Virus record (IMG/VR): IMGVR_UViG_2778261256_000006
Span: 1-55,611 of that record
DNA length: 55,611 nucleotides
Direction: 5' to 3' (one strand)
Origin: a virus
Lineage: Duplodnaviria > Heunggongvirae > Uroviricota > Caudoviricetes
Of this stretch, positions 16,717 through 51,988 are shown one piece after another. The notes below the pieces were generated by a model that had not been told where the DNA came from, made no database searches, and saw only the letters and a list, made by a program, of their open reading frames with translations. Numbering within the stretch: the first letter of the stretch is position 1; every line of letters begins with the position of its first letter. The translations under genes and the position numbers were made by a program.

Positions 16717-16785
16717 TGCTGAATGCTTTTCTGCATTGTTAAAACAAATTGTTTAGACAAATGATTAATGAGAGTTAACAACAAG

Positions 16786-16806
16786 GGCCGCTGACGGCCC
16801 TTTTGT
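16786..16806 (+). terminator. hairpin plus T-tract in the leader of the Rha-like gene (possible attenuator)
   Basis: GGGCCG-CTGA-CGGCCC followed by TTTTG, between the operator-like motif (16741) and the gene start. Confidence 0.45.
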
Positions 16807-16822
16807 ACTGAATGGAAAACGT

Positions 16823-17638
16823 ATGTTTGAGGTAACTGCACACGCTCCCAGCACCACAGGCTTACATGCCAGGCCATCGATGACCAGTCAGGAGATCGCC
16901 GAAATGGTCGGCAGTCGCCATGACAGCGTAAAACGCACCATTGAAAGACTCGCTAAATCCGGCGTTATTACTTTTCCACCAATGGTGGAAAAGCCCACTG
17001 CCGGGCGTCCGGCTACGTTTTACTTGTTCGAAGCCGAACAGGGTAAGCGCGACAGTATCGTTGTCGTGGCACAGCTTTCTCCTGAATTTACCGCACGCCT
17101 TGTTGATCGGTGGAGAGAGCTTGAGTCCATGTTTGCCGACCGCGGAACGCCTGCTATTCCACGTACCTATAAAGAGGCTCTGGTTCATTTGTTACACCAG
17201 GTCGAGGAAAACGAGCGTCTGGAGAAAGAGAACGAAGCGTTAGGCGTTGCACTATCTAACGCAAAACCAAAAGCCATTCTCATGGACACCATTTGCGGCA
17301 CTGCTGATGAGCTTTATGGGCTGAATGAAGCTGGTCGCATTCTCGGCACGTCCGGGGCTGTTCTGGGTTCGCTGATGGACTCGCTGGGTGATGTGTACGT
17401 TAAGCGCAAATACACCACTGTTAACCGCCAGTTCCTCAAGATCTTCATTGACCGCGGATATGGCAAAAACGTTGTCATCGGAAACGGTCGCAACCAGGCC
17501 AAGTTCACCTTTAAAGGGCTTTGCTTTGCAGCTGTGAAACTAATTGCAGCCGGGTTGATTGCCTCCAGCGCCATTGAATATGAGCCGTGTCGTGAGCATG
17601 TCGAACGTGCAATGAAGGAATCCAAACGTCTTCATTGA
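16823..17638 (+). CDS. Rha-family phage regulatory protein / antirepressor-like
   Basis: N-terminal Rha-like segment (SMTSQEIAEMVGSRHDSVKRTIERL), C-terminal antirepressor-like region; true start may be ATG 16880. Confidence 0.65.
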   Translation: MFEVTAHAPSTTGLHARPSMTSQEIAEMVGSRHDSVKRTIERLAKSGVITFPPMVEKPTAGRPATFYLFEAEQGKRDSIVVVAQLSPEFTARLVDRWRELESMFADRGTPAIPRTYKEALVHLLHQVEENERLEKENEALGVALSNAKPKAILMDTICGTADELYGLNEAGRILGTSGAVLGSLMDSLGDVYVKRKYTTVNRQFLKIFIDRGYGKNVVIGNGRNQAKFTFKGLCFAAVKLIAAGLIASSAIEYEPCREHVERAMKESKRLH

Positions 17639-17747
17639 CCGTCAGTATGGACGTCCACCTTTATGTAGCGTTTGGCCACCTTTTCAGTCACGTCACAATA
17701 ACACAATTGAGAAAACAACTTGTTTAAAAACATAAGAAAAAAAACAC

Positions 17748-18320
17748 ATGTGCGAAAAATGCAAAAAAACTAATGCCAAAGTTGAAAGCGTGATTAAAAA
17801 AGTTGGTGCGGCCGAACTGGTTGAGATCATGGGTCTTGTGGTTGGTCACGAAGACGACGCCTCCCCTATTGACCGCCTTTTCAGCGTTCTCAAGTTCTCA
17901 AGCATGATTGATGATCCGATTGAAATTGTGATGCTGGCGCGTCATTTCGGCGAAGCGTATCTGGAAGAGAAAGAACGCGCCGACAAACTTCAGGCAACTC
18001 TGGAAATGGTAAGCAAGCCGAAGTGCTCACCGGATTCAGTCAAGGCAGATGAAACCAACGCCAGCAAAGATCGTGAAATCGCCGGGTTGAAGTCTTCTCT
18101 GGCGATGTTGCTGGCCGCCTTCAAACTGATGTCTTCCCAGGCTGGATTCAAAATGCCTGAGCTGAACAGCGACGATCCGATGGCCGTTCGCCAGCTGCTG
18201 GGGGCAATGGCCGACCAGCTTGACGACACCAAGAGCCGTCTTGAAGACATGATGCGCGAGCTGACCCATCGCCACGACCTGAACAAACAGCCGCAAAAGA
18301 TGCAGCCTTTACATCATTAA
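17748..18320 (+). CDS. hypothetical protein
   Basis: 190-aa ORF preceded by the operator-like motif; no recognised domain. Confidence 0.5.
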   Translation: MCEKCKKTNAKVESVIKKVGAAELVEIMGLVVGHEDDASPIDRLFSVLKFSSMIDDPIEIVMLARHFGEAYLEEKERADKLQATLEMVSKPKCSPDSVKADETNASKDREIAGLKSSLAMLLAAFKLMSSQAGFKMPELNSDDPMAVRQLLGAMADQLDDTKSRLEDMMRELTHRHDLNKQPQKMQPLHH

Positions 18321-18324
18321 TATA

Positions 18325-18345
18325 TAGGGGGCAAAGCCCCCTACT
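18325..18345. terminator. bidirectional hairpin between convergent genes
   Basis: AGGGGGC-AAA-GCCCCCT between the 17748-18320 (+) and 18346-18765 (-) genes. Confidence 0.5.
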
Positions 18346-18765
18346 CTACTTTGCGGCGTCTAACAATAAGCCGCAATTTTCGCTCATGTATGCCGCAGTT
18401 GCCGGATTGCCTCTGTCATTATTCGAATTGTTCATTTCAGGGTGAGCGTCCCAGGCCACTGATTCCTGAGATGATAGATAGACGGCAAAGTCGACGATTT
18501 CATCATCTCCGGTTTTAACGTTGCCAAGCAATTCATTTGCCTTTCTCCAGTGCTTCAGCGCGAGAATTCTGAACTGTTTTGCATTTTCAGCAGGCACTGC
18601 ACTGGATTTGTCTGTGTAGATATTCGATATGTCGGCATAAAGAGCGCATTTAACATAGCTGGTTGCCCTGCCGGTCTCTTTAAAACCTTGCTCTGTGTTG
18701 TTGGCGTAGACATTCACAGCAAAAGCGCTGGCAATTCCCAGCAATATAATTTTCTTCATCATCAT
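18346..18765 (-). CDS. secreted hypothetical protein (signal peptide)
   Basis: MMMKKIILLGIASAFAVNVYA signal peptide; 139 aa. Confidence 0.55.
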   Translation of the reverse strand: MMMKKIILLGIASAFAVNVYANNTEQGFKETGRATSYVKCALYADISNIYTDKSSAVPAENAKQFRILALKHWRKANELLGNVKTGDDEIVDFAVYLSSQESVAWDAHPEMNNSNNDRGNPATAAYMSENCGLLLDAAK

Positions 18766-18936
18766 TACTCAATAAGGAGGCGACAAATATCTTACGTGTA
18801 GTTGTCAGTTGAGTATTAAGTAAACTCAATAAACTTATAAGTATCTCCCTGTGCAGCCTGTGAATCCTTATTTATTACCTACTCAATTTTGAAATAATAA
18901 CACCAACAAAAAAACAATTTGTTTAATGGTGCAATC

Positions 18937-20622
18937 ATGAATACAGCCCTTTCCATCATTGACGCTATCACTCCAAACACTGATATCGACTACCGGCAGG
19001 AAATGAACGTTATCCACGAAATTGTGGCCGAGTGCGAGAAAGAGATCGCATTCATGCATCAGGTTCACGACTTCGTTTATGGCGACGAACGCCACAGCAT
19101 GATTAACCGTCTGCTGCGACTCAACCACCGGCCGGATGACGAGCGCACACGCTTTAACAGAGCCTGGTTGGACAAAGTCGACCTGGAATGGGTGAAACAG
19201 AACATCTGGGCTGAATACTGGAAGAAGGTCACGGATATGACCAACGTTCTGCTGATCATGCCAGCATCCCGCCGCGACGAGTGGCGTGAACAGTTTATCG
19301 AGGGCAAGCAGGAAACGATCAAGACTGACAGAACTGGCTATCAAATGAAGGTTAAAGAGTTCGTTGGTGTACCTGAGTTCAAAGCAGAAACGGTCATACC
19401 AACGATGCTTAATTTGCTGAATGACAGGCACAAATATCTCTCTGAGCGCGTGTATGGCTTGTTTAAGGCGTTGAGTCCTGCTCACAAGACCAATAAGACG
19501 AACGGCTTCAGCGAGCGTCTGATCATCGCCGACTGCATTTCCGATTTCTGGCGGGACAGCGTCAGCGTTAACTACCGGAAAGAGGATTACATAGACGACC
19601 TGCGCGTCATGTTGCATTTCTTTGCACACAAAGAATTTATCACCATCAACCGCACGGCCGAGATGCTGTCAGCTGCGTATCGAGCAAATGACTGCCAGAC
19701 CGGCGACTGGATGAATGTCGACGGAAACCTGATGCGTGTGAAGATGTTTAAGAACGGCAACGTTCACTTTGAAATACATCCTGACGTAGCCTGGAAGCTG
19801 AATGAGGTGCTGGCTTACAGTATGCCTGCAGCAATCCCGGCGCCATGCCGTACTGCACCCAAAACACGGGCACCAAAAGAGTTCGGGTTAATCCAGAAGA
19901 CGATCTCCGAGCCGGTTCGTACCGCGCTGCGCGACGGGCGATTCAGCAAAGATAAAGGCGTCTGGTACTTCTCTGATTCCAACCTCCAGAAGTCGCAGGT
20001 GGAAGAGCTTGAGCGCACACTGAACTTCATTGGCGGCGTGCAGGAGAAAAAGCACTGGCAGTTCCCGTATGAGATCGGCCATACGCTCAATACGATTGTG
20101 GCCACCGGCTTAATACCGGATACAAAATCACACCAGTTCTACCCTACCCCGCGTTTGATAGCGGAGTACGTTGCCAGAGCCATCGAGCTGAAGCAAGGTG
20201 AGAAGCTGCTGGAGCCTGAAGCCGGGCGCGGAGATCTGCTGGCCTGCATCGACGCCAATCCGGAAGACGTTACCTGCATAGAAGTCGCACCTCTCTTCGC
20301 TGATATCCTGCTTGGCAAGGGGTACACAAATACGGTCTGCTGCGACTTCATGAAGTGGTCTGAGGACAACGCAGGTTATCAGTTCGACAAAATCGTTATG
20401 AACCCGCCCTACTCTCTTGGCCGTCACAGAGAGCATACGCTGGCCGCGCTGGAGCATCTTAAAGTCGGCGGGCGACTGGTGGCTGTATTGCCTGGTGATG
20501 CGCCAGTTCTGAACTGGATGTCGCTGGATAATTACGTTTATGCCAAAGGGAAGTCGTTTACTGACGAGTTTGAAGACACCGGGATTACTGTCAGCGTATA
20601 CGTTTTTAAACGCGTTAAATGA
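18937..20622 (+). CDS. DNA N6-adenine methyltransferase (orphan) with large N-terminal domain of unknown function
   Basis: C-terminal SAM-binding motif I (LEPEAGRGDLL) and catalytic NPPY (VMNPPYS); about 380-aa N-terminal extension; no cognate endonuclease adjacent. Confidence 0.75.
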   Translation: MNTALSIIDAITPNTDIDYRQEMNVIHEIVAECEKEIAFMHQVHDFVYGDERHSMINRLLRLNHRPDDERTRFNRAWLDKVDLEWVKQNIWAEYWKKVTDMTNVLLIMPASRRDEWREQFIEGKQETIKTDRTGYQMKVKEFVGVPEFKAETVIPTMLNLLNDRHKYLSERVYGLFKALSPAHKTNKTNGFSERLIIADCISDFWRDSVSVNYRKEDYIDDLRVMLHFFAHKEFITINRTAEMLSAAYRANDCQTGDWMNVDGNLMRVKMFKNGNVHFEIHPDVAWKLNEVLAYSMPAAIPAPCRTAPKTRAPKEFGLIQKTISEPVRTALRDGRFSKDKGVWYFSDSNLQKSQVEELERTLNFIGGVQEKKHWQFPYEIGHTLNTIVATGLIPDTKSHQFYPTPRLIAEYVARAIELKQGEKLLEPEAGRGDLLACIDANPEDVTCIEVAPLFADILLGKGYTNTVCCDFMKWSEDNAGYQFDKIVMNPPYSLGRHREHTLAALEHLKVGGRLVAVLPGDAPVLNWMSLDNYVYAKGKSFTDEFEDTGITVSVYVFKRVK

Positions 20623-20684
20623 TAGGTAAATACTTACCTAATCTAGGTAAGAATATAGTGACTATATGATAAGAGAAAAAACAC

Positions 20685-21652: not shown

Positions 21653-21654
21653 CT

Positions 21655-22919: not shown

Positions 22920-22957
22920 GTGCTATAGTCAGGCGCTTTTATATTTATGGAGTGAAT

Positions 22958-23684: not shown

Positions 23685-24102
23685 AAACAATTTGTTTAAT
23701 TAGTGGTGTAATTATTGGAATCCCAGGCGAACTAAATCCATTGGGCAGAACAGATCTTCCACACCTTCGATAGACACGCAGTCAGAGCGGCGTAATTGTT
23801 CTTCTGATTTGCCTTCCCCACTGATTTCTCTGATTACTCCCGTTGCGCCATTCATTGCCACCATGACATGGCTGCCGATAGTGATAGCATTACGGTTTCG
23901 ATCATACGTCTTTATCGTTTCCTCCTTTCACATGGGGCAAATCAGGTTTCAAAAATTGCCGTTTTCCATGTATATGCGATTTGCAAAATATCAATTTCCT
24001 AAACAAATTGTTTTCACCCGCTAGTTATTACACACAGGCGAAGTTGACCGCGCTTCATATAAATATCACTGTCTATACATACAGTGTATAAGGGGAAAAA
24101 AA

Positions 24103-24369: not shown

Positions 24370-24454
24370 TCATCCCTTAAATATCTTGTTTTCTGCCTTT
24401 TGTTATTTGAGATAATAACACCAATTAGAAAACAAGTTGTTTAAGGAATCATCC

Positions 24455-24691
24455 ATGTTTGGAACCGCAAAAGAGCTTATCGAAAAGCTGGAGAACTACC
24501 CAGAAGACGAGCCGCTGCTGATGGTTGTGTGGCATAAGGAAGACGTAGGCGAAGTACGCCCAGACCTTACTGACTATCAGTGCGCCCAGGTCTTGCGCAG
24601 AATCAAAGAGTGCCATGATGCCAATATCGGCGTGAATTGGGACGTTATCTCTGACACGGCCGACATCCTGTTTCCGAAGGAGAAGGCATGA
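24455..24691 (+). CDS. hypothetical protein
   Basis: ATG 8 nt after an AAGGA RBS that follows the operator-like motif; 78 aa. Confidence 0.5.
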   Translation: MFGTAKELIEKLENYPEDEPLLMVVWHKEDVGEVRPDLTDYQCAQVLRRIKECHDANIGVNWDVISDTADILFPKEKA

Positions 24692-25023: not shown

Positions 25024-25650
25024 ATGGCGGGAATAATTACCTGGAAAGTTGATATCATATACCCGCTTGTATTTCAAAATGGAATGGATGTAATGGAAAT
25101 CGATACTTTAGAAAAAAAATCAGTTAAAAACCTCTACGCGTGGCTTATAGCAATACTGCCGTTTGTTGTCAGCGTCCCCCCTGCTGAGTACGACAATTAC
25201 GTTATGGTGATTTCGTTCGTCATTGGGCTTGGACTGCTGGTCGCCGATCGCATGAATTTGACTGAGGCAGGCTATGAGCCACCATCATTCTTATGTGGGT
25301 TCTTTATCCCCCCTGTGTATCTCTGGAAACGAGCGACGGTTCTTGGAAGTAACCGACTGCTGTTTATCGTATGGATTGTTGCCTTTGCTGCATCATTTTT
25401 CGTGTATAGCTTCAACGCAGATTCAGCGCTTGAAGAAGCTGCTTGCCCTATAGTTACCACTATTCTGAAAGAAAATAACGGTTCAGAAGCATCTAAATGC
25501 ATGAAGGTAACAATTCAGGACAAAGTGACGGACAAGTTCTACAAAGCCACGGCTACACTGGATAACGGTAATGACATTAACATCACTATCGAAATGATCG
25601 GTGACGAGAATTTCTACGTTCGCGTGCCTAATTACTACCTAAACGACTAA
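25024..25650 (+). CDS. membrane protein (multiple TM segments)
   Basis: Hydrophobic segments (LIAILPFVVSV, MVISFVIGLGLLVA, LLFIVWIVAFAASFFVY). Confidence 0.5.
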   Translation: MAGIITWKVDIIYPLVFQNGMDVMEIDTLEKKSVKNLYAWLIAILPFVVSVPPAEYDNYVMVISFVIGLGLLVADRMNLTEAGYEPPSFLCGFFIPPVYLWKRATVLGSNRLLFIVWIVAFAASFFVYSFNADSALEEAACPIVTTILKENNGSEASKCMKVTIQDKVTDKFYKATATLDNGNDINITIEMIGDENFYVRVPNYYLND

Positions 25651-27150
25651 CGGCTGCAACTCGTTGACATTGGCGGTCACAAATTGAGGATTTCTATAAG
25701 AGTCCGTTGATCGCCACTTCCCCCACCTCTCCAACCTACCCCAGCCCAGGGGTGACAAGGCATTTAAGCCAATTACACCCATAAGAAAACAAATAAATAA
25801 CACGTCAACGAAAAGTCAACGCTTTCCTCTGATTTGGTCTAAAAAGTTGACGTTTTCGCAAGCCATCTCTTATACCCAAAATCCTGCGCACCAGAATCCA
25901 TCTCCCTGCGACCAAAACGTCAAAAACGACTCGTGATATCACTCAAAAACAGAAGCGCTCAGAAGCGCTCCCGTTGCGTTATATTGGGCATCTAAACAAG
26001 TTGTTTTCAGGAATAAGAAAACAAGTTAACAACCCCCACAGGAAACCCAGAGACGCCATTACCCACAATCCCGGAAACACCCACCTCTTCCTGTCAGACT
26101 ACCGAAAAGACCCACCTCATTGCCCCAGGCTACAGACCACCCACCTAATATTCCCAGGCAACCGAGAACGCGGTTCGCACGCGCAAACCCCGATACGTCA
26201 TTACCCAATACACGGAGAAGAACAGCCAGAACGAAACCCCGGACAAACCCAGACAAGAACAGGAGCCGTCACAATCTCGTTTACCCACCATTACCCCGAA
26301 AGAGAGCGCAAATTCCTGAATAGCAGGGAACGCCATTACTTCATATGCGGAGAACAACTAAAGCGCCCTACTGCCATTACCCACACTTTCATCATTTCAC
26401 GTAAACGAAGAGAAAAGTGCACCTGCCATTACTCCATACACGGAGAAGAACACTCACCAAAACGACGAGAACAACCCAGACGAAAACACAGAGAAGAACC
26501 ACCTCAAGAAGAACGAAACCACATATGCCGGTAGAAAGAACAAACCACCCATTTCACCCAAAGGAATACTCGCCGTATAGAGCGTTATCAGAGGGAAGGT
26601 TTGTGCCCACATAAGAGAGAAAATTCGTGGGAGGTATAAGTGGGAAGGGAAGGAGGGGTATCGCTACTTTCTCCGTATAAATTCAAGCCATAGTTTTCGT
26701 CCCCCGTAACGTCCCTTTCCACCCCTTCGGTCAGCCTTCGGGCCATCCAGGGAAAAGGCTGGAGGTTTTCAGGGAAACGGTGGGAATCCCGCTATACGAA
26801 CCGGGAAAAGCTGGCTGCCGGTCGGGAAACGGGTACATCCCGGTACAGAGCGAGGGACGACTGCGGGAGCGGTGCGGGAAATCTTCGGGAGTGCGCCTTG
26901 CTCTTCGCTCGCCTGAAAATCGCGAGGGAGTGTCGTTCCCTCTCGTGCAGCTGCTGAACTCCATTCTGCCAGACCATCCTCGGGTCTCAAGCGATTTCAG
27001 TAGGTTTTCGGGGAGAAGAAAATTCTGCCCACCAGCCCTGCGGCGCGCGTAGAGCAGAATATCGTAAATACTGGTTCCCGTGTCGTTCCCGGATATTCAC
27101 TGCCCAGCCTGGCTTTCACGACATAAAATCCTTTTTCGCCTTTGTCTTAT
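25650..27150. repeat. 1.5-kb non-coding stretch rich in degenerate short direct repeats
   Basis: No convincing ORF (only low-complexity frames); repeated CGTCAACG/CGTTGAC, CCATTAC..ACGGAGAAGAACA (x3), CCACC-rich and GGGAAAHGG units. Confidence 0.55.
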
Positions 27151-27217
27151 TGCGACAATAACACCAACAAGTAAACAACATGTTTAGACGTTATATAAAC
27201 GAAGTGAGGATGAAGGG

Positions 27218-27436
27218 ATGATTAAGATGCCTGTGACGGTTGAGGTGTGGGGCGTGGATTCCCTGGCTGAGTGTCTGGATGCAGTGGGGCCGGAGTTGTA
27301 CCGCAAGTTGTGGTCGTTCGTCCCGGCAGAAGGGGAATCGCCCAAAGGGAAGGATATCTGGCACCTGCTTAGTGAAGATGAAAAGCGGGAGCTGGTGGAC
27401 GCGGTACACAGCGAGTTCCCGGACGACGAAGATTAA
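27218..27436 (+). CDS. small acidic hypothetical protein
   Basis: 72 aa; preceded by GATAAT plus operator-like palindrome. Confidence 0.5.
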   Translation: MIKMPVTVEVWGVDSLAECLDAVGPELYRKLWSFVPAEGESPKGKDIWHLLSEDEKRELVDAVHSEFPDDED

Positions 27437-27575
27437 GAGTGAGACCACCAGCACGGTGGCTTTTGTCGCTATTAACCTCCGGGGCAGCGCAGCACCGTAA
27501 CGATATACTTTGTGGCCGTTTTCTTACTGGTATTGTTTACGCAATTCAGAAAACAACATGTTTAAGGATTGCTTT

Positions 27576-27905
27576 ATGTTTGCAAATATCGACATCAACC
27601 AAATCAAGAAAATGACTCAAAAAGAGTTTGACCAGTTTTATGAGTTAGAAGGTTGGTCTTCCACGCTGATCAATTCGCGCTGGGTGCTTGAGCTGATGAC
27701 TCGTGATGATGCTCCTGCTTTGATTATTTGCGACATGGGTGAAGATGCTGACTTTATGGATATGAGCGAATTTTGTGTGGACACATACAACCGCAGCCAG
27801 AAGTACTACTTCACATGCGATAGCGAGAATGACGTGATTTCTAAGCTCTATCTTCACCTTGTCCAGCATTGGGACGTGCAGGAATTCCTTGAGTTATTCG
27901 CGTAA
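27576..27905 (+). CDS. small acidic hypothetical protein
   Basis: 109 aa; AAGGA RBS directly after the operator-like palindrome. Confidence 0.5.
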   Translation: MFANIDINQIKKMTQKEFDQFYELEGWSSTLINSRWVLELMTRDDAPALIICDMGEDADFMDMSEFCVDTYNRSQKYYFTCDSENDVISKLYLHLVQHWDVQEFLELFA

Positions 27906-28065
27906 GCCCAACCAAAGCCAGCACCGCCTGCTGGCTTAACTTCTCTGTAGCCGCAGGGCTGAACCACCTTTAGATAATTCATGTGCCTGAGCAATATGCT
28001 TTGTAGCCGTTTTTACACTGGTATTATTTACGCCATTGAGAAAACAATTTGTTTACGGAGTGGTG

Positions 28066-28377
28066 ATGAATACTTCATTGGTGCTGGGTCTTGCTGAAGG
28101 CCAGGAGAGAAAAGAAAAACCAACCTTAATGGGGCATCTCACATTGCTGGATATCGTAGCGAATGGGACTTCTATCCGTCTGTTTCGTGAAAAAGCCATT
28201 ACCTTCGACGCGGGCAATTTTACGCGCTATGTGATGGTAGTTCGTCGCCAGCGTGGAAGAGGGTGGATGTCGGTCCAGAAAATGTGGCCAGAGGACCAGC
28301 TTGAACTGGCGCTGATGGAAGCCAACCGTGTCGCCCAACAAGAGATCCAACGAGCGTCTGTTCAGGCGGTAGCTTAA
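28066..28377 (+). CDS. small hypothetical protein
   Basis: 103 aa; operator-like motif then RBS; followed by a terminator. Confidence 0.5.
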   Translation: MNTSLVLGLAEGQERKEKPTLMGHLTLLDIVANGTSIRLFREKAITFDAGNFTRYVMVVRRQRGRGWMSVQKMWPEDQLELALMEANRVAQQEIQRASVQAVA

Positions 28378-28930: not shown

Positions 28931-29011
28931 TATCCCCGATAACAAAATGTTTTCTGCCTTATCTGATTTGTGAAAATGATTTCACTGAAGCAACTTAATA
29001 AGGAAACCATC

Positions 29012-29386
29012 ATGGGACTTGATATCTATATCGAGACGCAGCCTAAAAACGATCTGAATAACGAGGCATCCAGAAAGCAGGTTGCTTACTTCCGTAAGTT
29101 CAATGCGCTCGTTGGGTGGATGGAGCGCAACGTAGGTGAAGTCGAAAATTGTGAGCTTTTAGAATTAACGATGAATGACATTTGTTTTCTGAAGGCTCAT
29201 TTGATGCACATAAACGAAAGTAATTGCGAAGAGTACTTGCCTACCCAGGAAGGTTTTTTCTTCGGCAGTCAGGAGTACGATGAAGGTTACTGGCATGATG
29301 TGGGGGAGTTGAAAGAGATTGTGGAAGATCTGATTAAGAACCACGACTTTCACAATAATAGACTGACCTTCTGCGCCTGGTGGTAA
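29012..29386 (+). CDS. hypothetical protein
   Basis: ORF 28970-29386; ATG 29012 (MGLDIYIE) is the more likely start. Confidence 0.45.
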   Translation: MGLDIYIETQPKNDLNNEASRKQVAYFRKFNALVGWMERNVGEVENCELLELTMNDICFLKAHLMHINESNCEEYLPTQEGFFFGSQEYDEGYWHDVGELKEIVEDLIKNHDFHNNRLTFCAWW

Positions 29387-29722
29387 ATATGGGCGATTTC
29401 AAGAAACGCCTGAAGGAGAGAGCCGAGATGGTCAGAAAGCGAAACGCCTCTTCTGTCATAAGATACGCAAGGCAGTTTAGTCGCAACAACAAATCAGTTG
29501 AGGAAAAGATCCTTAGCGTAATCGGGCGATAATTATTAAGGCCACCAGCATTGGTGGTCTTAAATGACTTTTAATAACCGAAGGTTAGTTTAAAACCTGG
29601 CTATCAACTTCCAGAACCTTTCTTGTGTATTCAGCCTGTATTAACTTCTTTTATGCCTTATCTACACTGCGATAATTACACCAACAAGAAAACAATATGT
29701 TTACGCAGTGAGGATATGCTCA

Positions 29723-30003
29723 TGACTGATTTCACCATTACCCCTAAAGCACAAAATGTATTCCTTGAATCATGGCTGGACTTGCCGGAAACAGAACAGC
29801 AAGAAATGGATCATGTGGAATATGACGAGCAGGTAAGCACGCGATTCTTCCACTTTGAGGGCTGCGTTTACGACATTGCCGACTTCATGCGAGATGACCG
29901 CTTCCCTGAATGGCACGCAAGCTATCCACTAAACGCCTTCGCCATGCTGATGATCCGTGTGGATGATTCAGGGGATACCATCGACATCGGTCTGCTCCAC
30001 TAA
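29723..30003 (+). CDS. small acidic hypothetical protein
   Basis: 93 aa; GATAAT plus operator-like palindrome upstream; followed by a hairpin. Confidence 0.5.
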
Positions 30004-30207
30004 AGAGTAAGGCCACCAATGCTGGTGGCCTTAAATGACCATCCTGTTTCCCGCAGGCTAAAAACACCAACCTCTTACCTCTAGGCAACCGACAAACCCA
30101 CCTGTTCCCGTCCGGCTACCGCAACTTTCCACTTTGACGCCTTATTCGTACAACGATAATTAACACCAACAAGAAAACAATTTGTTATTTACGATAAGGA
30201 ATTAATC

Positions 30208-30690
30208 ATGAATTTTATCGCTACTGTAAACGCACCCGCACATGGCAATATCGCTGTAACGTTCTCTGACATTGAAAAACGAGTACTTGGTGCATGGCGC
30301 GACAATGAGACGGTAGAACTGTCAGCACAAGAAAAATGCATTATTGCACGCGACATCATTGGCAATCGTCGTTACTCGCGGGTATTTGAGAAAGCATATG
30401 TGGTAAATTCTGGATTCGGAACGTTCGTCTTTCCGGTGCGCTCCGGGCGATTCTGCCAGTCCAAGCTGATTGAGTTCGCTACGCAGATTTCTGTCTGGAT
30501 TAAAACTCAATCGTCGTTCAAATTTTCCGACGATGAAGCAGTATCGCAGGGGATGCGGATCGCCAACAATGCAATAAAATACAAAAACATTACGTATGCC
30601 GCTGGCGTTGACACATGGAAACTGTTTTGCGCTAACTTTATGCTGAATGTATACGCAAGCAACCGCATCCACATCCTTGATGGCGTGTAA
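30208..30690 (+). CDS. hypothetical protein
   Basis: 160 aa; GATAAT plus operator-like palindrome upstream; followed by a terminator. Confidence 0.5.
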   Translation: MNFIATVNAPAHGNIAVTFSDIEKRVLGAWRDNETVELSAQEKCIIARDIIGNRRYSRVFEKAYVVNSGFGTFVFPVRSGRFCQSKLIEFATQISVWIKTQSSFKFSDDEAVSQGMRIANNAIKYKNITYAAGVDTWKLFCANFMLNVYASNRIHILDGV

Positions 30691-35421: not shown

Positions 35422-35485
35422 AAACCTCTTTCCTTCGTGCCTTTTGTATGGTAATTGGCTATTATGTTAAGTAAGTACTTACACA

Positions 35486-38639: not shown

Positions 38640-38906
38640 ATGACGTTGACCGACAAACAAAAAGACATCATCAAAACCATCAATTTAGGCCATGAGCGTG
38701 GGCATCTGCTCGATCTGGACGAGCTGCTTGAAGTGCTGCCGTACAAAACGACCAAACAGAGTATGCAGTTCTCTATCCGCGCACTGGTGAAAAAGGGGCT
38801 GGTGGAGAAAGGAATGTGCCGCCAGCGCGGTGATTCCGGCTACCACCGTCGCACGCTGGGACTGACCACTTTAGGTCGTGCCAGAGCCAAATTACTGGTG
38901 ATGTAA
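38640..38906 (+). CDS. small probable winged-helix DNA-binding protein
   Basis: 88 aa; basic C-terminus (RRTLGLTTLGRARAKL). Confidence 0.4.
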   Translation: MTLTDKQKDIIKTINLGHERGHLLDLDELLEVLPYKTTKQSMQFSIRALVKKGLVEKGMCRQRGDSGYHRRTLGLTTLGRARAKLLVM

Positions 38907-38928
38907 GTCGGTCTGGGAGCCAGTTTGA

Positions 38929-38989
38929 GAGCCTGCTTCCGTATATATAAATACTAAGTGACTTATTAAATATATACGGAAGCAGGCTC
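38929..38989. repeat. 61-bp palindromic element (19-bp arms), copy A of a two-copy repeat
   Basis: GAGCCTGCTTCCGTATATA..TATATACGGAAGCAGGCTC; about 85% identical to the element at 51046-51100. Confidence 0.6.
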
Positions 38990-39020
38990 TGAATACTCCC
39001 CAGCCCGGTTTTAAACACCC

Positions 39021-39064
39021 AGAAAACAAATTGGTTAGGCACTGAATTAAACAAGTTGTTTAGG
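39021..39064. promoter_or_regulatory. tandem pair of operator-like palindromes upstream of terS
   Basis: AGAAAACAAATTGGTTAGG and TAAACAAGTTGTTTAGG. Confidence 0.5.
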
Positions 39065-39101: not shown

Positions 39102-39743
39102 ATGACTATAGAAAAAGACGAGAGCAAAACTCGCCTGACACCAGCTGAGTGGGCAGAAGCCGAAGCGAAGTGGACTTCCGGCGAATACACACTCTCCAAG
39201 CTGGAGGAAGAGTACGGCATTCGTCGTGAAACGCTCTCCAGACATTTCAAAAAGCGTGGATTAGAGAAAGGCGCGGACTCCGTTGGGAAGATGGTGCGCG
39301 AGTCGCTCAAATCCGACGCAGAGCTGCGTGCGAAGGCGCGTGCAGAGAAAATCGAAGAGCGCCGGACTCGTTACGACGATTGGGCGTTCGCACTCGGTCG
39401 TATGGTGATGCATGAGGTGGCCATAGCCAAGAAGGACGGCAGGCCACTGGCAGCCATCGAAGATGACCTGAAGAGTCTCCAGCGTGCCAGCGGCACACTC
39501 GCTAAGTGCTTCGAAATATCGTCGAAAGCGCTCGGTATGGATCGCGTGGAGAACGAGGACGACGAAATCCCGAACCTGGTATTTGGCGAACTTACGCCTT
39601 CCCAGGTGGCGCAGCTGCGTAAGGAAGATGATGAGCCGGATCTGATTGATGACGATCTGCTTGAGTCACTCGAAGAGGAAGCACTGAGCGAAGCTGAGGG
39701 CGATTCTGAAGCGTCTGGTGATGAAAGTGATGGGAGCGTCTGA
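39102..39743 (+). CDS. Terminase small subunit (TerS)-like
   Basis: 213 aa, N-terminal helix-turn-helix-like region, highly acidic C-terminus; immediately precedes TerL. Confidence 0.6.
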   Translation: MTIEKDESKTRLTPAEWAEAEAKWTSGEYTLSKLEEEYGIRRETLSRHFKKRGLEKGADSVGKMVRESLKSDAELRAKARAEKIEERRTRYDDWAFALGRMVMHEVAIAKKDGRPLAAIEDDLKSLQRASGTLAKCFEISSKALGMDRVENEDDEIPNLVFGELTPSQVAQLRKEDDEPDLIDDDLLESLEEEALSEAEGDSEASGDESDGSV

Positions 39744-39745: not shown

Positions 39746-40999
39746 ATGACCATCCCGTCGTCTCTGAGTCTCGTACAGCTGCATTCTGGGCAGATGCAAG
39801 TCTTCCAGTCGCCACATCGTTTCAAAGTGGTGTGTGCGGGTCGACGCTGGGGTAAATCCCGGTTGTCGATCTCCACCATCATCCGCGCGGCAGCCAAAGA
39901 GAAGAAGCAACGTGTCTGGTATGTCGCACCGACTTACCAGATGGCTCGCCAGATCTTGTGGGATGACCTGCAGGAAGTTCTGCCGCGCAAATGGGTTCGT
40001 AAGAAAAACGACACCACGATGACCATCGTGCTGAAGAACGGCTCTGAAATCGCGCTGAAAGGTGCGGATAAGCCCGATACGCTTCGTGGTGTGGCACTGC
40101 ACTTTGTGGTGCTCGATGAATTTCAGGATATGAAGCCTGACACCTGGTACAAGGTACTGCGTCCGACACTGTCCTCCACCCGTGGCGGTGCGCTGATCAT
40201 CGGTACGCCAAAAGGCTTCTCCGAGTTCCACAAGCTGTGGACTATCGGTCAGAACAAAGATTTGCAACGCAAGGGGCAGTGGAAGAGCTGGCAGTTCGTT
40301 ACGGCCGATTCTCCGTTCGTACCGAGCGCGGAAATCGAAGCAGCGAAGAACGATATGGACCCTAAATCGTTCGCACAGGAATACCTGGCCAGCTTCGAAA
40401 ACATGTCCGGACGCGTTTACTACCCGTTCGACCGCAATGTGCATGTGAAGCCACTCCAGTTCAATCCGAAACTGCCGATCTGGGTTGGTCAGGACTTCAA
40501 CATCGACCCTATGTCATCGGTCATCCTGCAACCGCAGCCAAATGGTGAACTGTGGGCTGTGGACGAATTGGTGTTGTTCTCTTCTAACACGGCTGAAGTG
40601 TGTGACGAGCTGGAGCGTCGATACTGGCGCTGGAAATCTCAGGTCACTATCTTTCCTGACCCGGCAGGTGCGTATCGCCAGCACGCACGCGGCGAATCTG
40701 ACGTCGACATCTTCAAAGAGAAAGGTTTCCTTCGAGTCGATTATCCGAAGAAGCACCCGCCGATCGCAGACCGTGTTAACGCAGTGAACCGCATGTTGAT
40801 GAGTGCCTCGGGCGAAACCCGGTTGTACATCGATCCGAAGTGCAAACACCTCATCGACTCGCTGGAGAAGGTGATCTACAAGCCAGGCTCACGCGATATG
40901 GATAAGACTGGCGGCATCGAACACAGTGCGGATGCGTTGGGTTATCCAGCGTGCATCGTCGCTGGGGACTGCGTGGGCGCCTTGGGCATCTGGAAGTAG
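39746..40999 (+). CDS. Terminase large subunit (TerL)
   Basis: Walker A (VCAGRRWGKS), Walker B (HFVVLDEFQD), C-terminal RNaseH-like nuclease region. Confidence 0.85.
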   Translation: MTIPSSLSLVQLHSGQMQVFQSPHRFKVVCAGRRWGKSRLSISTIIRAAAKEKKQRVWYVAPTYQMARQILWDDLQEVLPRKWVRKKNDTTMTIVLKNGSEIALKGADKPDTLRGVALHFVVLDEFQDMKPDTWYKVLRPTLSSTRGGALIIGTPKGFSEFHKLWTIGQNKDLQRKGQWKSWQFVTADSPFVPSAEIEAAKNDMDPKSFAQEYLASFENMSGRVYYPFDRNVHVKPLQFNPKLPIWVGQDFNIDPMSSVILQPQPNGELWAVDELVLFSSNTAEVCDELERRYWRWKSQVTIFPDPAGAYRQHARGESDVDIFKEKGFLRVDYPKKHPPIADRVNAVNRMLMSASGETRLYIDPKCKHLIDSLEKVIYKPGSRDMDKTGGIEHSADALGYPACIVAGDCVGALGIWK

Positions 41000-41483: not shown

Positions 41484-41484
41484 T

Positions 41485-46400: not shown

Positions 46401-46912
46401 TGGCGGCCGGATATCCAACAGCGTATGGAAATATCATTCACCTGAAAGGGATGACAGCCGTTGGCGAAGGTGAGTTACTCATCGGCTGGAGTGGTACAAG
46501 CGGTGCTCATGCTCCGGCATTTATTCGTTCACGACGGGATACGACCGACGCAAACTGGTCGCCGTGGGCGCAGCTTTACACCTCGGCTCATCCTCCTGCA
46601 GAGTTTTATCCAGTCGGTGCACCAATCCCGTGGCCATCAGATACCGTTCCGTCTGGCTATGCCCTGATGCAGGGGCAGACTTTTGACAAATCTGCATACC
46701 CGAAACTTGCAGTTGCTTATCCGTCAGGCGTGATCCCTGATATGCGTGGCTGGACGATTAAGGGCAAGCCCGCCAGTGGTCGGGCCGTATTATCTCAGGA
46801 ACAGGACGGCATTAAATCGCACACCCACAGCGCCAGCGCATCCAGTACGGATTTGGGGACGAAAACCACATCGTCGTTTGATTACGGCACTAAATCTGGA
46901 CAAACTTCTTAA
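43403..46912 (+). CDS. Tail tape measure protein, C-terminally fused in frame to a tail-fibre collar-like fragment
   Basis: 1169 aa; coiled-coil-rich, Gly-rich stretch ([18 protein letters not shown]); final about 150 aa carry a tail-collar-like motif ([49 protein letters not shown]). Confidence 0.75.
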
Positions 46913-47739: not shown

Positions 47740-47740
47740 T

Positions 47741-48155: not shown

Positions 48156-48208
48156 ATGTGATTTAGGCGAAAGGCACTCTTTTTTACAGATCGAGTGCCT
48201 TCTTCAAT

Positions 48209-48760: not shown

Positions 48761-49038
48761 GGCGTCATCTCCAAAAGTAAGTTTATGAATGCTACCGATA
48801 GCCTGCTAACCGGACGCGTCAAAACTACTTTGGCGAGCCAAGTTTAAATAAAACGTTGTTTAACGATGGGCTATTGCTTTGCGAGACAGGCGCCAGGTGA
48901 CCATCACCACCTGTCTTCATACTAACCAGGGAGCTTTTTCGAGTCAAATTTACATTCGGCTAATTTGTTAACTACCTATAAGTGCCTGACATTTCACCTT
49001 TACACCGCAGCTGTAGGCATTTAGGCTATATCGCATAT

Positions 49039-49057
49039 AAGAAAACAAGTTGTTTCA
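49039..49057. promoter_or_regulatory. operator-like palindrome upstream of parA
   Basis: AAGAAAACAAGTTGTTTCA. Confidence 0.5.
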
Positions 49058-49090
49058 TACGACAATAATTCACGCAAAGGAAACTCACCA

Positions 49091-49756
49091 ATGACCAAGA
49101 TCATTGTGGTTGGCGGCACAAAAGGCGGCCCAGGCAAATCTACCGTTGCCCAGCAAATTGCGGTATGTCTCAAAGTTAAAAAGAAAAAGAAGGTTCACGT
49201 CACCGATATCGATATCCAGCGCACCACGACCAGCTGGTGTGAAGACCGTCGCCAGAACGAAGATCTTGAACTGATCCCGTTCGCTTATGTGCAGGACGAC
49301 ATCGTCAAACATCTTAAATCGCTTCAGGGGCGAACTGATTATGTAGTGGTAGATGCTGGTGGCTTTGACTCCGAAATTCAGCGTCTGGCGATGCTTATGG
49401 CTGATGTAATCATCATCCCGCTGCGCCCTAAACGTCGTGATTTGAAATCTCTGCGTGATATCGACCCGATTATCGACAACGTTCGCAATGTGAACGAGAA
49501 AGTTAAGATCCGCGCGGTAATAAACCAGTGTCCGTCATTGCCTTCCCAGGTATCACGTATTCTGGCCGCGAAGGAAATTGTCGAAACTTTCGGCATCGAG
49601 GCTGCGCCGGTCAATCTGTACAACCGTAACGTTTATGACGATGCAGAAGAGGCTGGACGTTCTATCTTTGAAATGTCAGGCGCTGAACGCGATAAGAAAG
49701 CAGAAGCCGAATTTGGAGAGTTAGTAGATTACATCTTGAGTCTGGAGGAAGAATAA
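49091..49756 (+). CDS. parA: ParA-family partition ATPase
   Basis: Deviant Walker A (GGTKGGPGKST); 221 aa; followed by an overlapping small DNA-binding protein gene. Confidence 0.85.
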   Translation: MTKIIVVGGTKGGPGKSTVAQQIAVCLKVKKKKKVHVTDIDIQRTTTSWCEDRRQNEDLELIPFAYVQDDIVKHLKSLQGRTDYVVVDAGGFDSEIQRLAMLMADVIIIPLRPKRRDLKSLRDIDPIIDNVRNVNEKVKIRAVINQCPSLPSQVSRILAAKEIVETFGIEAAPVNLYNRNVYDDAEEAGRSIFEMSGAERDKKAEAEFGELVDYILSLEEE

Positions 49757-50115
49757 TGTCCATGAGAATGGGAGACCTTGCAAAGCGCAATGAGCCTAAA
49801 GAACCGGCCAAAAGCAGCACTCCACTGCGCCAGCCAGTCAGACCGCAGGGGCGTCCGACTCGTGGCAAAGAGAAGATTAAAAGCCGCACAATGTCGCTGG
49901 AAGACGAGTACTTCGAACTGTTGGAGATGATGAAGTTTATCCCTCGTTTTGAGAAGTTCACCCGTTCTGATGTGATTCGTGCAGCCATTTTCCATCTGGC
50001 AGAGAAGTCACCGCAGGAAATCGAAGACATCGTGAAACTGAACGAGGCGATCACTGCTGCCGACGTCACGATGCGTACCGACGAAATCAAACGAGAGTTG
50101 ATGAAGAAAGGTTAA
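49756..50115 (+). CDS. small partition protein (ParG/ParB-like centromere-binding protein)
   Basis: 119 aa, basic N-terminal tail; start overlaps the parA stop (TAATG). Confidence 0.6.
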   Translation: MSMRMGDLAKRNEPKEPAKSSTPLRQPVRPQGRPTRGKEKIKSRTMSLEDEYFELLEMMKFIPRFEKFTRSDVIRAAIFHLAEKSPQEIEDIVKLNEAITAADVTMRTDEIKRELMKKG

Positions 50116-50118
50116 AAA

Positions 50119-50150
50119 TTATGCATTGGCGCAATGTACGCGCCAATGCA
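50119..50150. other. perfect 12-bp-arm palindrome immediately after the partition operon
   Basis: ATGCATTGGCGC-AATGTA-CGCGCCAATGCAT; no following T-tract. Confidence 0.5.
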
Positions 50151-50167
50151 TAAGTACAGTGTCAGCT

Positions 50168-50935
50168 TTATGCCGCGCTAACACTATGTTCATTCCTAAC
50201 CACCCCAACCTTCACAAAAGGGCTGCCGTAGCTTGGTGGCTTCTTGATTAATTTGCCTACATACAGTTTTCTAATATGCTCATCGGCTATTCTGCCAACA
50301 AATTCATAACGTTTTGTGTCGGGGCCAAGAGCTATATCCCTTGTAAAGTACTGCTGAGAACCGGCTTTGACCCAGCATTCAATCTGATAAACTTCCATTA
50401 TCAGGCCCCCATATGTAGCGTAGGCATATTTGAGATTCTCGTCTCTTGGAACCTTTGCCCATACGCCACGCGTAGCTTCATATAATGCCAGAGCGGACAT
50501 TCCTGACTTGTAGGTGCTGTTTAGCAGGAAGGCAAGACCGGCGTGCTCAGGAGCAATTTCAGTTTCCTCTTGCAGCACTAAGTGATGGTAGGCGTCCAGT
50601 GATATTCTGCCCATCATGGAACCACTTCCTCGTACCTTATTCGTAAGCTCTCCGACCCCCATAAGGTCGATGCATGTCGCCTCAACAAGTTTGGCTGTGG
50701 TTTCATCCATACCATGACGAAGAATATCTATGCCTAATTTTTTATTAGCCAAAAGTTCTTTGATCCGCATGGATTTGGGAGAGTCATCGGGATACTTGAT
50801 GTGATCGAGACAACGAGTCGATTTGCCTTTTCCTATGTAAAACGGTCTTTTCATCTTGTCTTCTGTATCATAGAGACAGTAAACATAGTATTTAGCCTTA
50901 TCCAATGATCTCGCGTATACCGATAAATCGTCCAT
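50168..50935 (-). CDS. GIY-YIG nuclease-domain protein (homing-endonuclease-like)
   Basis: N-terminal GIY-YIG-like motif (YYVYCLYD..PFYIGKGKSTRCLDH); flanked by AT-rich sequence. Confidence 0.6.
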   Translation of the reverse strand: MDDLSVYARSLDKAKYYVYCLYDTEDKMKRPFYIGKGKSTRCLDHIKYPDDSPKSMRIKELLANKKLGIDILRHGMDETTAKLVEATCIDLMGVGELTNKVRGSGSMMGRISLDAYHHLVLQEETEIAPEHAGLAFLLNSTYKSGMSALALYEATRGVWAKVPRDENLKYAYATYGGLIMEVYQIECWVKAGSQQYFTRDIALGPDTKRYEFVGRIADEHIRKLYVGKLIKKPPSYGSPFVKVGVVRNEHSVSAA

Positions 50936-51045
50936 TATTGCATCTCTTAGCTACTGACTAATGCGTTCTATTTTACACATAAGTTTTTAATCAATTTTAC
51001 AGGCTCAAAGTGTAGAGCTTCTGGGTGTCTAAGACGACAAGTTAT

Positions 51046-51100
51046 GCCTGTTTCTGTATATAAATAATAAGTAACTTATTAAATATATACGGAAGCAGGT
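51046..51100. repeat. palindromic element copy B, followed by T-tract
   Basis: GCCTGTTTCTGTATATA..TATATACGGAAGCAGGTC followed by TTTTAAAAG; near-identical right arm to 38929-38989. Confidence 0.6.
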
Positions 51101-51217
51101 CTTTTAAAAGACACCCACCAGAACAACTCCCTTCCGTTTCCACTTCCCAAAAATATCTCCAGTCGCTATGATTCGTTCACTTAGATAAGTAAGTACATAC
51201 CTATTAAAGGGAATCAT

Positions 51218-51943
51218 GTGAGCCAGATCTTCTTCAACACTATCGACAATGACCAGTACGATTTCATGACAGAGTGGAACACCGCAGTCATGGATAAGTG
51301 GGTAGCGGAGAACATTGGCCTGTCACGTTGCAAGGACGAGGCGGAACTGTTCGAAACCAAATGGTTTGACTATCGCGATATGCACCCGCTCATGGCCACA
51401 TGCCTTTTCACTGAGGCATACAAGCGCCAGTACTCATACATCATGCTGTCGCATGGTCGTGAACACTATGAGACGGCTCCATTCACAACCGGTCTGAAGC
51501 GTGTGCCATATCAGGAGTTGTCGACTGCCAATAAAACGTCTCTATGGAAAGCACGCCAGTTTGCTGACCGCTATTGCTGCTCATACGACTACTTTATCTC
51601 CACCGTTCTTTCCGCAGCTGCACGACGGCTGTGGGACAAATTACCGCGCCCCCAGCATCTCTGGCAGCCCGAGTTGATCGAGATATTCGAAGAGAAGTTA
51701 GCCAAACGCGCTGTAACCCGTCTGGATGACTCTCTGGTGAGTTTTAAGCATCTTGGAGACATGCAGCGTGACCCGATTCAGGAACGCTATTTTGAGTGGA
51801 TTCTGGAGCGTCTGCGTGGCATTACCCGAGATAAACGCATCCGTATCATCTTCTCCGCTGTCTGGTTGATGGAAATCGTGCCTGAGCGTGTGATTTACGC
51901 GCACTTCCCGGAAGAACTGGAAGAAGCACGGCGATTCTGTTGA
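51218..51943 (+). CDS. hypothetical protein
   Basis: 241-aa ORF preceded by the GTAAGTAC palindrome. Confidence 0.5.
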   Translation: MSQIFFNTIDNDQYDFMTEWNTAVMDKWVAENIGLSRCKDEAELFETKWFDYRDMHPLMATCLFTEAYKRQYSYIMLSHGREHYETAPFTTGLKRVPYQELSTANKTSLWKARQFADRYCCSYDYFISTVLSAAARRLWDKLPRPQHLWQPELIEIFEEKLAKRAVTRLDDSLVSFKHLGDMQRDPIQERYFEWILERLRGITRDKRIRIIFSAVWLMEIVPERVIYAHFPEELEEARRFC

Positions 51944-51968
51944 TCCCCTATCTGGCTTTTTTAGTATT

Positions 51969-51988
51969 AGAAAACAAATTGTTTAAGC
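51969..51988. promoter_or_regulatory. operator-like palindrome upstream of the DnaB-like helicase gene
   Basis: AGAAAACAAATTGTTTAAGC. Confidence 0.5.

Follow-up and report, generated by a model that had tools for sequence, protein, structure and literature searches.

A dispersed 13-bp palindrome and its putative operator regulon in SSU5-type phage-plasmids

The stretch of DNA analyzed here, which we call the window, comprises the 55,611 nucleotides of IMG/VR virus record IMGVR_UViG_2778261256_000006 and is part of an SSU5/pHCM2-type phage-plasmid from Escherichia coli. It covers only about half of a roughly 110-kb element. Its identity to E. coli S56 plasmid B (NZ_CP010244.1) is 98-99% along most of the sequence, and that to Salmonella phage SSU5 is about 84%. 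Genes of the SSU5/pHCM2/pMT1 type occur in about 800 records of a plasmid collection, from Klebsiella, E. coli, Enterobacter, Salmonella, and Yersinia, and the phage-plasmids that have them often carry resistance genes; to our knowledge, the control of their lysis-lysogeny decision and of their maintenance is essentially uncharted. Between the genes of the window there recurs a short palindrome, AAACAA-N-TTGTTT, which we examine here as the putative operator of a single regulon.

The palindrome is 13 bp long, with two arms of six bases around a single central base (6+1+6), and usually lies within the flanks AAGA-palindrome-A(A/C)G(G); the operator sequence can also be written out as AAGAAAACAAGTTGTTTAAGG. 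An initial annotation of the same DNA had given the centre two bases, and the corresponding 14-mer consensus AAACAA-NN-TTGTTT, which was tried first, produced poor matches; with the geometry corrected to 6+1+6, the window contains 11 perfect copies, five with one mismatch and three with two mismatches. One of the last (51355) lies inside a coding sequence and looks like a product of chance. The others are given below, class I denoting sites centred about 14 bp downstream of an inferred transcription start and class II sites centred about 38 bp upstream of one.

16742-16754, no strand assigned: perfect copy upstream of a Rha/Ant-like gene (16823/16880-17638), with no canonical -10 at class I or class II distance and with a terminator-like hairpin after it
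17713-17725, plus strand: perfect, class I; -10 CACAAT (17694-17699) 13 nt upstream and ATG (17748) 23 nt downstream
18912-18924, plus strand: perfect, class I; extended -10 TG-AATAAT (18893-18898); precedes a DUF4942 gene (18937-20622)
23685-23697, no strand assigned: perfect; abuts a GGCCAC...GTGGCC terminator hairpin between an lprI-like gene (plus strand) and ydfZ (minus strand); the same module of hairpin plus palindrome is present in SSU5
24001-24013, no strand assigned: perfect; between ydfZ (minus strand) and the gene at 24103 (plus strand), with the flank orientation reversed; conserved in SSU5 (L001 3996)
24379-24391, plus strand: two mismatches, class II (-38), 19 nt before the -10 GATAAT (24411-24416); its centre is 51 bp from that of the site at 24430
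24430-24442, plus strand: perfect, class I (+14), on the same promoter as 24379; precedes a DUF1380 gene (24455-24691)
25994-26006, no strand assigned: perfect; a degenerate second copy (AAACAAGTTAACA) starts at 26020
27173-27185, plus strand: one mismatch, class I; extended -10 TG-GACAAT (27154-27159); gene 27218-27436
27551-27563, plus strand: one mismatch, class I; extended -10 TG-TATTGT (27531-27536); gene 27576-27905
28042-28054, plus strand: perfect, class I; extended -10 TG-TATTAT (28022-28027); gene 28066-28377; promoter and operator conserved as far as Nissabacter
28940-28952, plus strand: two mismatches, class II (-38), just after a terminator and 19 nt before an extended -10 TG-GAAAAT (28972-28977); gene 29012-29386
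29690-29702, plus strand: one mismatch, class I; extended -10 TG-GATAAT (29671-29676); gene 29722-30003
30175-30187, plus strand: one mismatch, class I; -10 GATAAT (30155-30160); gene 30208-30690
39024-39061, plus strand: tandem copies at 39024-39036 (one mismatch) and 39049-39061 (perfect), their starts 25 bp apart, between the gene for an 88-aa protein and terS (39102-39743)
49043-49055, plus strand: perfect, on the parA promoter (TAGGCTATATC...AAGA-palindrome), 36 nt before the parA ATG
51972-51984, plus strand: perfect, 20 nt before the ATG (52004) of a DnaB-like helicase gene; conserved in the relative Cyrano and in Klebsiella oxytoca

Searched with the pattern AAACAANNTGTTT at up to one mismatch, the window yields 34 strand-hits against 1.68 expected, a number that none of 100 shuffles reached, and an unbiased census of all 5-N(0-5)-5 palindromes ranks the motif first, with 14 copies versus three for the runner-up. 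Although 83% of the window is coding, 17 of the 19 sites fall between genes (binomial P = 1.4e-11); this count scores as coding the site at 23685, which by the ydfZ annotation of a near-identical plasmid lies just past the 3' end of that gene. The main-site coordinates of the initial annotation are correct, and its expectations of enrichment over a shuffled control and of intergenic bias are borne out by these figures. The placement that it described, 10-45 bp upstream of start codons, applies to about 12 sites, but others lie 60-126 bp upstream, beside terminators or in a gene-poor stretch. A region of about 1.5 kb (25650-27218), in which coding statistics suggest no convincing gene, houses the pair at 25994, which in the relatives from Nissabacter and Enterobacter wuhouensis consists of two good copies 25 bp apart; searches of Rfam recognized no known RNA in this region and gave no matches in the window as a whole. 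In a complete relative of 113 kb, 17 sites agree with the motif in all positions but at most one, and a single one of them, upstream of a cobT-like gene, falls outside the part homologous to the window.

The spacing of the palindrome with respect to promoter elements was studied in 557 unique sites from 88 related loci (1.64 Mb), oriented solely by a nearby -10-like hexamer, and two recurrent arrangements emerge. In class I, which accounts for 234 of the 557 sites, TG-n-GATAAT is followed after 13 nt by the palindrome; an A occupies the expected start in 79% of the sites, AAGA stands at positions -4 to -1 of the palindrome in 74-93%, and the palindrome covers approximately +8 to +20 of the inferred start, with its centre near +14. 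In class II (98 of 557) the order is terminator, CCC(G/T)(A/T), palindrome, TCTGCCTT and then a TG-n-GATAAT starting 19 nt past the palindrome, the flank being mirrored and the centre lying near -38. In both classes the AAGA-AAACAA half, which is the better conserved of the two, points toward the -10, so that the sites occur in both orientations at fixed distances from that element, whereas the distance from palindrome to start codon varies between 12 and 50 nt. Eight sites of the window itself belong to class I and two to class II, and at 24379/24430, as at the orthologous positions of SSU5 and Cyrano, a single promoter is flanked by one site of each class, at 51 bp from centre to centre. Neither spacing applies to the copies before parA, dnaB and terS and at 25994, and tandem copies about 25 bp apart are found at two of these places, terS and 25994. 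A shared GATAAT context had been noticed before; it is indeed an extended -10 (TGnGATAAT), and at eight sites 13-14 nt separate its end from the palindrome. From this context the palindrome had been proposed to sit over the transcription start; relative to the inferred start it instead occupies +8 to +20, slightly downstream, or lies at -38. The second shared context of about 55 bp (27520 and 28008) is likewise real and is conserved in distant relatives. A generic sigma-70 scan of the window found no excess of -35/-10 promoters, because the operator-linked promoters have no -35.

The same palindrome is also the most frequent in the census of SSU5, Cyrano, the Nissabacter element, the E. wuhouensis element and an SSU5-like stretch on a chromosome-sized E. 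coli contig, as it is in a divergent K. pneumoniae plasmid, with core proteins only 50-90% identical, which has 13 perfect copies in 33.6 kb. In alignments of orthologous intergenic regions the -10 and the palindrome are invariant while the surrounding sequence drifts, and a scan of IMG/VR for the extended motif retrieved multi-copy contigs only among SSU5-like elements. Conservation at orthologous positions, whose absence the initial annotation had named among its refuting outcomes, holds from E. coli to Nissabacter and Klebsiella. Among the weaker half-matches that it listed, the one at 28938-28956 is a site of the -38 type whose orthologous position is conserved in relatives, the one at 48850-48864 is a partial copy only, and 53390-53410 has no match to the motif. 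Phylogenetic profiling was of no help in assigning a binding protein, since neither the motif nor any of the candidates occurs outside this one family, and their presence or absence does not discriminate.

A symmetric element in a leader might function as DNA or as RNA. Among the distinct variants of the class I core, counted across all six arm pairs, the symmetry is broken in 29 variant cells, compensated in one and of the G-U type in three. Ten leaders that were folded gave stems of 5 bp with energies of -1 to -6 kcal/mol, none better than those of shuffled sequences, and class II sites lie upstream of their promoter and hence are not transcribed from it. Because the arm symmetry is broken in this way, the hairpin is marginal and class II is untranscribed, we attribute the maintenance of symmetry to sequence-specific recognition of duplex DNA rather than to base pairing; an RNA hairpin was rejected on the folding result and on the lack of covariation between the arms. 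Judged from sequence and its conservation, the palindrome is very probably the DNA operator of some dedicated repressor, and the whole has the appearance of a genuine family-wide operator regulon. The geometry and the conservation lend substance to the earlier proposal that one promoter-linked putative operator, repeated before replication, partition, packaging and many small genes, defines one regulon.

Further information comes from the RNA-seq of E. coli LF82 carrying the related element Cyrano (supplementary table of PMC9928086), in which the median value of the prophage genes is 9.8. The small genes of Cyrano behind class I and class II operators have values of 5.7-25, near background despite their near-consensus extended -10, which would fit repression of the target genes in the plasmid state. 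Values are 50 for ParA, 89 for the gene that follows it and 96 for a repressor of the XRE type, while an FljA-like gene is weakly expressed (18) and the gene of the 88-aa protein upstream of terS has 7.8.

The regulator was originally said not to be identified in the window. This was probably too pessimistic, as the window encodes ParG/omega-like, MarR-like and FljA-family candidates:

49091-49756, plus strand: ParA-type partition ATPase of 221 amino acids (aa), with MipZ/CbiA/AAA_31 domains and no N-terminal DNA-binding domain; first gene of a motif-bearing operon
49756-50115, plus strand: basic protein of 119 aa, the best candidate regulator; starts at the parA stop codon
38640-38906, plus strand: MarR/PadR-like winged-helix protein of 88 aa with an invariant recognition helix; rival candidate
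32567-33094, minus strand: FljA-family protein (PF03614) of 175 aa, predicted to have two tandem Sm/Hfq-like domains; rival candidate at the RNA level

A small Walker-type ParA (49091-49756) followed by a small gene (at 49756) is the layout of type Ib partition cassettes. By its sequence pattern, which is that of ParG/omega ribbon-helix-helix proteins, the 119-aa product of the second gene would have a basic proline-rich tail and then a strand (KSRTMSL), a helix, FTRSD and a second helix (VIRAAIFHL), spanning IKSRTMSLEDEY...FTRSDVIRAAIFHL; its core, which resembles a ribbon-helix-helix domain, can also be read as IKSRTMSLEDEY...FTRSDVIRAAI. The core blocks IKSRTxSxEDE and RSDVxRAA are invariant in homologues that are 30-97% identical, the protein is 90-100% identical in 736 of 797 plasmids, and it shows a weak match, below cut-off, to the NCBIfam ribbon-helix-helix family aCcr1 (E = 2.4e-4). 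In Klebsiella plasmids its identity is 90.8%, compared with 72-83% for the FljA-like protein, 60% for the XRE repressor and, in the divergent K. pneumoniae plasmid, 75% for the 88-aa protein. The orthologue in Cyrano, expressed in the lysogen as noted above, shares 114 of 119 residues. The promoter of its own operon bears the motif in the window, in Cyrano and in K. oxytoca, where the homologue is only 50% identical overall and has the same core; in Moellerella the site is half-degenerate.

How could such a protein control so many genes? Most targets share one unit, consisting of a terminator, an extended -10 without a good -35, a Shine-Dalgarno sequence and a small insulated gene, with an operator whose centre falls some 14 bp past the inferred start or some 38 bp ahead of it, or with operators at both positions. 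A protein bound at either place would block the binding or the escape of RNA polymerase, and promoters with the two sites 51 bp apart could be clamped between a pair of bound complexes. We consider it most likely that the regulator acts by repressing transcription at extended -10 promoters, from +14, from -38 or from both. The 119-aa protein, as a putative ribbon-helix-helix centromere-binding protein of the ParG/omega type, would autoregulate the par operon via the copy on its own promoter and, from the plasmid state, would also hold down early, replication and packaging promoters. The earlier notion of a single dimeric regulator survives as far as one regulon is concerned, but half-site centres 7 bp apart fit two ribbon-helix-helix dimers better than one helix-turn-helix dimer, and on account of this spacing we envisage two such dimers on adjacent inverted heptads. 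On balance we lean toward the palindrome being the operator of one repressor encoded by the element itself, acting on some 15-20 promoters, with the 119-aa protein as its most likely identity; that this partition protein is the actual binder we hold to be about as probable as the contrary, or slightly less so.

Several considerations weigh against this assignment. Searches of Pfam and of PDB sequences with the 119-aa protein returned no matches, and a BLASTP comparison with an approximate ParG sequence gave no alignment; its ribbon-helix-helix fold is a reading of the sequence pattern. The -10 elements were assigned as consensus matches, and many class I and class II promoters are paralogous cassettes, which inflates any count of 'independent' sites. 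In the type Ib centromeres and operators known so far, short repeats are arrayed, and a single 13-bp palindrome would depart from this layout. The competing 88-aa protein has a recognition helix and wing (K39, Q40, S41, Q43, F44, S45, R47, R61, R63) that are invariant in homologues 70-99% identical. The motif-bearing parA is expressed at about five times the median in the lysogen, which means that control cannot be all-or-none, even if expression above the median is what autoregulation predicts. Lastly, pMT1 of Yersinia pestis (L216, NC_004835.1 20531-49055) has lost most of the operator-bearing cluster of small genes and has no match to the 119-aa protein (no Yersinia among the 797 plasmid hits), yet it keeps five sites in the 28.5 kb examined, four of them with at most one mismatch, at two retained small genes and at terS. 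This mismatch of protein and sites may simply reflect recent history, pMT1 being too close a relative to be informative.

Among the known systems with which we have compared the regulon, the closest precedents are KorB with its operator OB in RK2 and omega of pSM19035. OB of RK2/RP4 is a 13-bp palindrome of the same 6+1+6 form (TTTAGCSGCTAAA), present in about a dozen copies around the replicon, some of them about 39-40 bp upstream of starts, as in class II; a compact palindrome in many copies is equally found here, with 16-19 copies in the window and class II centres near -38. KorB is, moreover, a partition protein that doubles as a global repressor and autoregulates, as we propose for the 119-aa protein. 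It differs in being a large ParB-family protein with helix-turn-helix and CTPase domains, as opposed to 119 aa with a core resembling ribbon-helix-helix, and its operator sequence is unrelated, while most sites here are at +14. Omega (pSM19035/inc18) and ParG (TP228) share with the present case a small ParA followed by a small basic protein with an N-terminal tail, and they autoregulate their own par promoter. Omega also serves as a global repressor, acting on promoters for copy number, partition and toxin-antitoxin functions, and it binds 7-bp heptads, including inverted pairs, which matches the half-site spacing here. In these systems, however, arrays of 7-10 heptads or tetramer boxes lie at three promoters, in contrast to single palindromes at 15-20, and sequence similarity to the 119-aa protein is undetectable, the fold of the latter being read from its sequence pattern. 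Autoregulation combined with a wider repressor role is common to ParG, omega and KorB; we know of no description of an omega/ParG-type protein controlling the early or packaging genes of a phage.

The same DNA operator could instead be bound by the 88-aa MarR/PadR-like protein (38640-38906), made from a ParB-like operon during lytic growth, which would then turn off early promoters and use the tandem sites to gate terS. Its AlphaFold model (predicted local distance difference test, pLDDT, 84) has winged-helix topology, with Foldseek matches to AF1382, MarR, MepR and PadR at a TM score of about 0.75; its gene is a core gene of the family, the product being 75% identical in the divergent K. pneumoniae plasmid, and lies directly upstream of the tandem sites at 39024 and 39049. 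We nevertheless regard this protein as an unlikely binder, given that its Cyrano orthologue is unexpressed in the lysogen (7.8 versus the median of 9.8) where the targets are silent, that its operon promoter carries the other palindrome GTAAGTACTTAC in place of the motif, and that dimers of the MarR type as a rule require a half-site distance of about 10 bp, which is 7 here.

Comparably unlikely is that the DNA operator serves a regulator from outside the window or from the host, such as a conserved enterobacterial factor, the highly expressed CYRAN_43 homologue or the XRE repressor, whose gene neighbours that of the integrase. The window does hold only about half of the element, the XRE repressor is a core gene product with an invariant helix-turn-helix that is expressed in lysogens, and a motif that is invariant across hosts would also suit a conserved host protein. 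Against this stand the different palindrome (GGTAAGYACTTACC) on the promoter of the XRE gene itself, for which reason we have rejected the XRE repressor as the binder, and the fact that no description of the motif sequence was found in the literature that could be searched; we know of no enterobacterial regulator with this consensus.

The palindrome of the XRE promoter belongs to a second dispersed family, TAAGTA-N(0-4)-TACTTA, with the core GTAAGTACTTAC and also the form GTAAGYACTTAC, which in the window occurs at 5969, 28446, 35468-35481 and 41878, with variants at 38955 and 51068, and which has at least 12 copies in the complete S56 plasmid B, including some inside the structural operon. 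At 35468 it lies on the promoter of the ParB-like operon, in a divergent region shared with the operon of the helicase and the FljA-like protein, and in four relatives (L003, L212-L214) it follows directly, as GGTAAGYACTTACC, the -10 of the XRE-type repressor promoter next to the integrase. This second palindrome is probably the operator of the XRE repressor, which from its position would constitute a true P1 C1-like regulon. The initial annotation had likened the first motif to the dispersed C1 operators of phage P1, and the likeness extends to a phage-plasmid with more than 15 scattered operators and to targets that include a DnaB-type helicase, methyltransferase-like and antirepressor-type genes. 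C1 operators, on the other hand, are asymmetric 17-mers bound by a monomer, as against a symmetric 13-mer here, and with P1 C1 the repressor's own promoter bears the operator, whereas the XRE promoter carries GGTAAGYACTTACC in the four relatives; no C1-like family was found in Pfam and PHROG scans of the window proteins submitted. The comparison with P1 therefore fits the second palindrome better, KorB and omega being closer for the first. We also note two inverted repeats of about 60 bp (38925-38990 and 51045-51110) that share the arms CTGCTTCCGTATATAT...ATATATACGGAAGCAG and have TAAGT(G/A)ACTTA at their centre; one lies between the gene of the 88-aa protein and terS, the other upstream of the gene at 51218 near dnaB, and they are possibly a terminator, a pac or origin element, or a protein-binding site.

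Less probable still is a functional form at the RNA level, in which the FljA-family protein would bind the copy in class I leaders, block translation and promote mRNA decay, as in a regulon of the T4 RegA kind. This homologue of the 'repressor of phase-1 flagellin' is a core gene product of SSU5-like elements, present in 831 plasmid records; its model (pLDDT 85) shows two tandem Sm/Hfq-like domains and no helix-turn-helix, which fits the mRNA binding reported for FljA. The PF03614 match spans the entire protein (E = 8e-95); its identity to true FljA is about 35%, and the two have invariant aromatic and arginine residues in common. FljA is reported to bind an operator in fliC mRNA, to inhibit translation and to lead to mRNA decay (PMC4122451; PMC2652032), an action that would suit class I leaders: there the palindrome precedes the start codon by 12-40 nt and in many cases directly adjoins the Shine-Dalgarno sequence, near which FljA acts on fliC. 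The Cyrano orthologue is, in addition, weakly expressed in the lysogen, and the fliC leader contains CAAGTTG. At its most far-reaching, and with equally low probability, this possibility would have a tandem Hfq/Sm-like RNA binder recognizing the transcribed AGAAAACAA-N-UUGUUUA in a dozen or more leaders as a regulon of translational repression and mRNA decay, with flagellar FljA as a domesticated single-target offshoot and a second protein serving class II. However, class II sites, upstream of promoters and mirrored, cannot act from RNA and are untranscribed from their own promoters; the distance to the -10 is fixed while that to the Shine-Dalgarno or ATG varies; compensatory changes are lacking between the arms, and the hairpin is marginal; only a single target of FljA is known; and a K. 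pneumoniae relative with an unchanged motif has an FljA-like protein of just 32% identity. Within the Salmonella fliC leader, the closest resemblance to the motif extends to 8 of 12 positions, a level that 21% of shuffled leaders reach (P = 0.21) and that is not significant.

The stoperators of cluster A mycobacteriophages, bound by L5 gp71, offer a further comparison, since they too are 13-bp sites in short intergenic gaps for which orientation matters, with about 30 per genome. They are, however, asymmetric, lie inside long operons without promoters of their own and stop elongation, whereas the sites of the present family have their own -10 and a symmetric core and occur in both orientations. 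That the palindrome is no operator at all, being carried along with a duplicated promoter cassette or forming an intrinsic part of promoters or terminators without a dedicated binder, is very improbable: several class I and class II promoters are clearly paralogous cassettes and some copies abut terminator hairpins (23685; L001 1657 and 3680), but the palindrome also stands in the unrelated promoter contexts of parA, dnaB, terS and the cobT-like gene, is the invariant part while the surrounding cassette diverges, and is kept perfect across elements with proteins only 50-70% identical.

Two other candidates in the window were considered as binders and not retained. At 35504-36852 (plus strand) two adjacent proteins with ParB/Srx N-terminal domains (GEHRWRA and GHGRREA) and acidic C-terminal parts, without a recognizable helix-turn-helix, are encoded at the start of an operon whose last genes are that of the 88-aa winged-helix protein and terS. 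They were considered as analogues of KorB and set aside because only the N-terminal domain is convincing; in comparisons with Spo0J, ParB and Noc, good similarity is limited to this domain, and the region aligned with the Spo0J helix-turn-helix is acidic and poorly matched. The other is a 92-aa protein (33581-33859, minus strand) encoded between the DEAD-box helicase and the FljA-like gene, with a ribbon-helix-helix-like N-terminus (AINCQVKLT...LSKADIINLVL). The strand residues that would face DNA differ between subfamilies, and in a relative with an unchanged motif the protein has 33% identity; on these grounds we rejected it as the protein behind an invariant site. Both this protein and the FljA-like one are about 32-33% identical in the K. 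pneumoniae relative, in which the helicase is 72% identical, and the Cyrano orthologue of the 92-aa protein reaches about 12 times the median in the lysogen; it is possibly an immunity-type module.

The particular copy analyzed here has undergone two deletions with respect to S56 plasmid B, with junctions at window positions 40943-40959 and 46408-46415. The first removed 5.65 kb, from the 3' end of terL through the portal, scaffold and major capsid genes, and the second about 11 kb, from inside the tape-measure gene to the tail-fibre region. Given these two deletions, we regard the copy as a defective, plasmid-only derivative that cannot make virions; the operator network is still kept in it.

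Returning to the 119-aa partition protein as the putative repressor, its confirmation would mean that plasmid segregation and the silencing of phage early genes are coupled through one protein, and that the logic of KorB and omega has been put to new use in a temperate phage. The predicted tandem Hfq-like fold of the FljA family would be of interest in its own right for flagellar phase variation. For the SSU5-type phage-plasmids as a family, the analysis provides a testable wiring diagram, with an invariant 13-bp operator at two fixed promoter positions, three candidate binders in the window and a second operator family probably tied to the XRE repressor.

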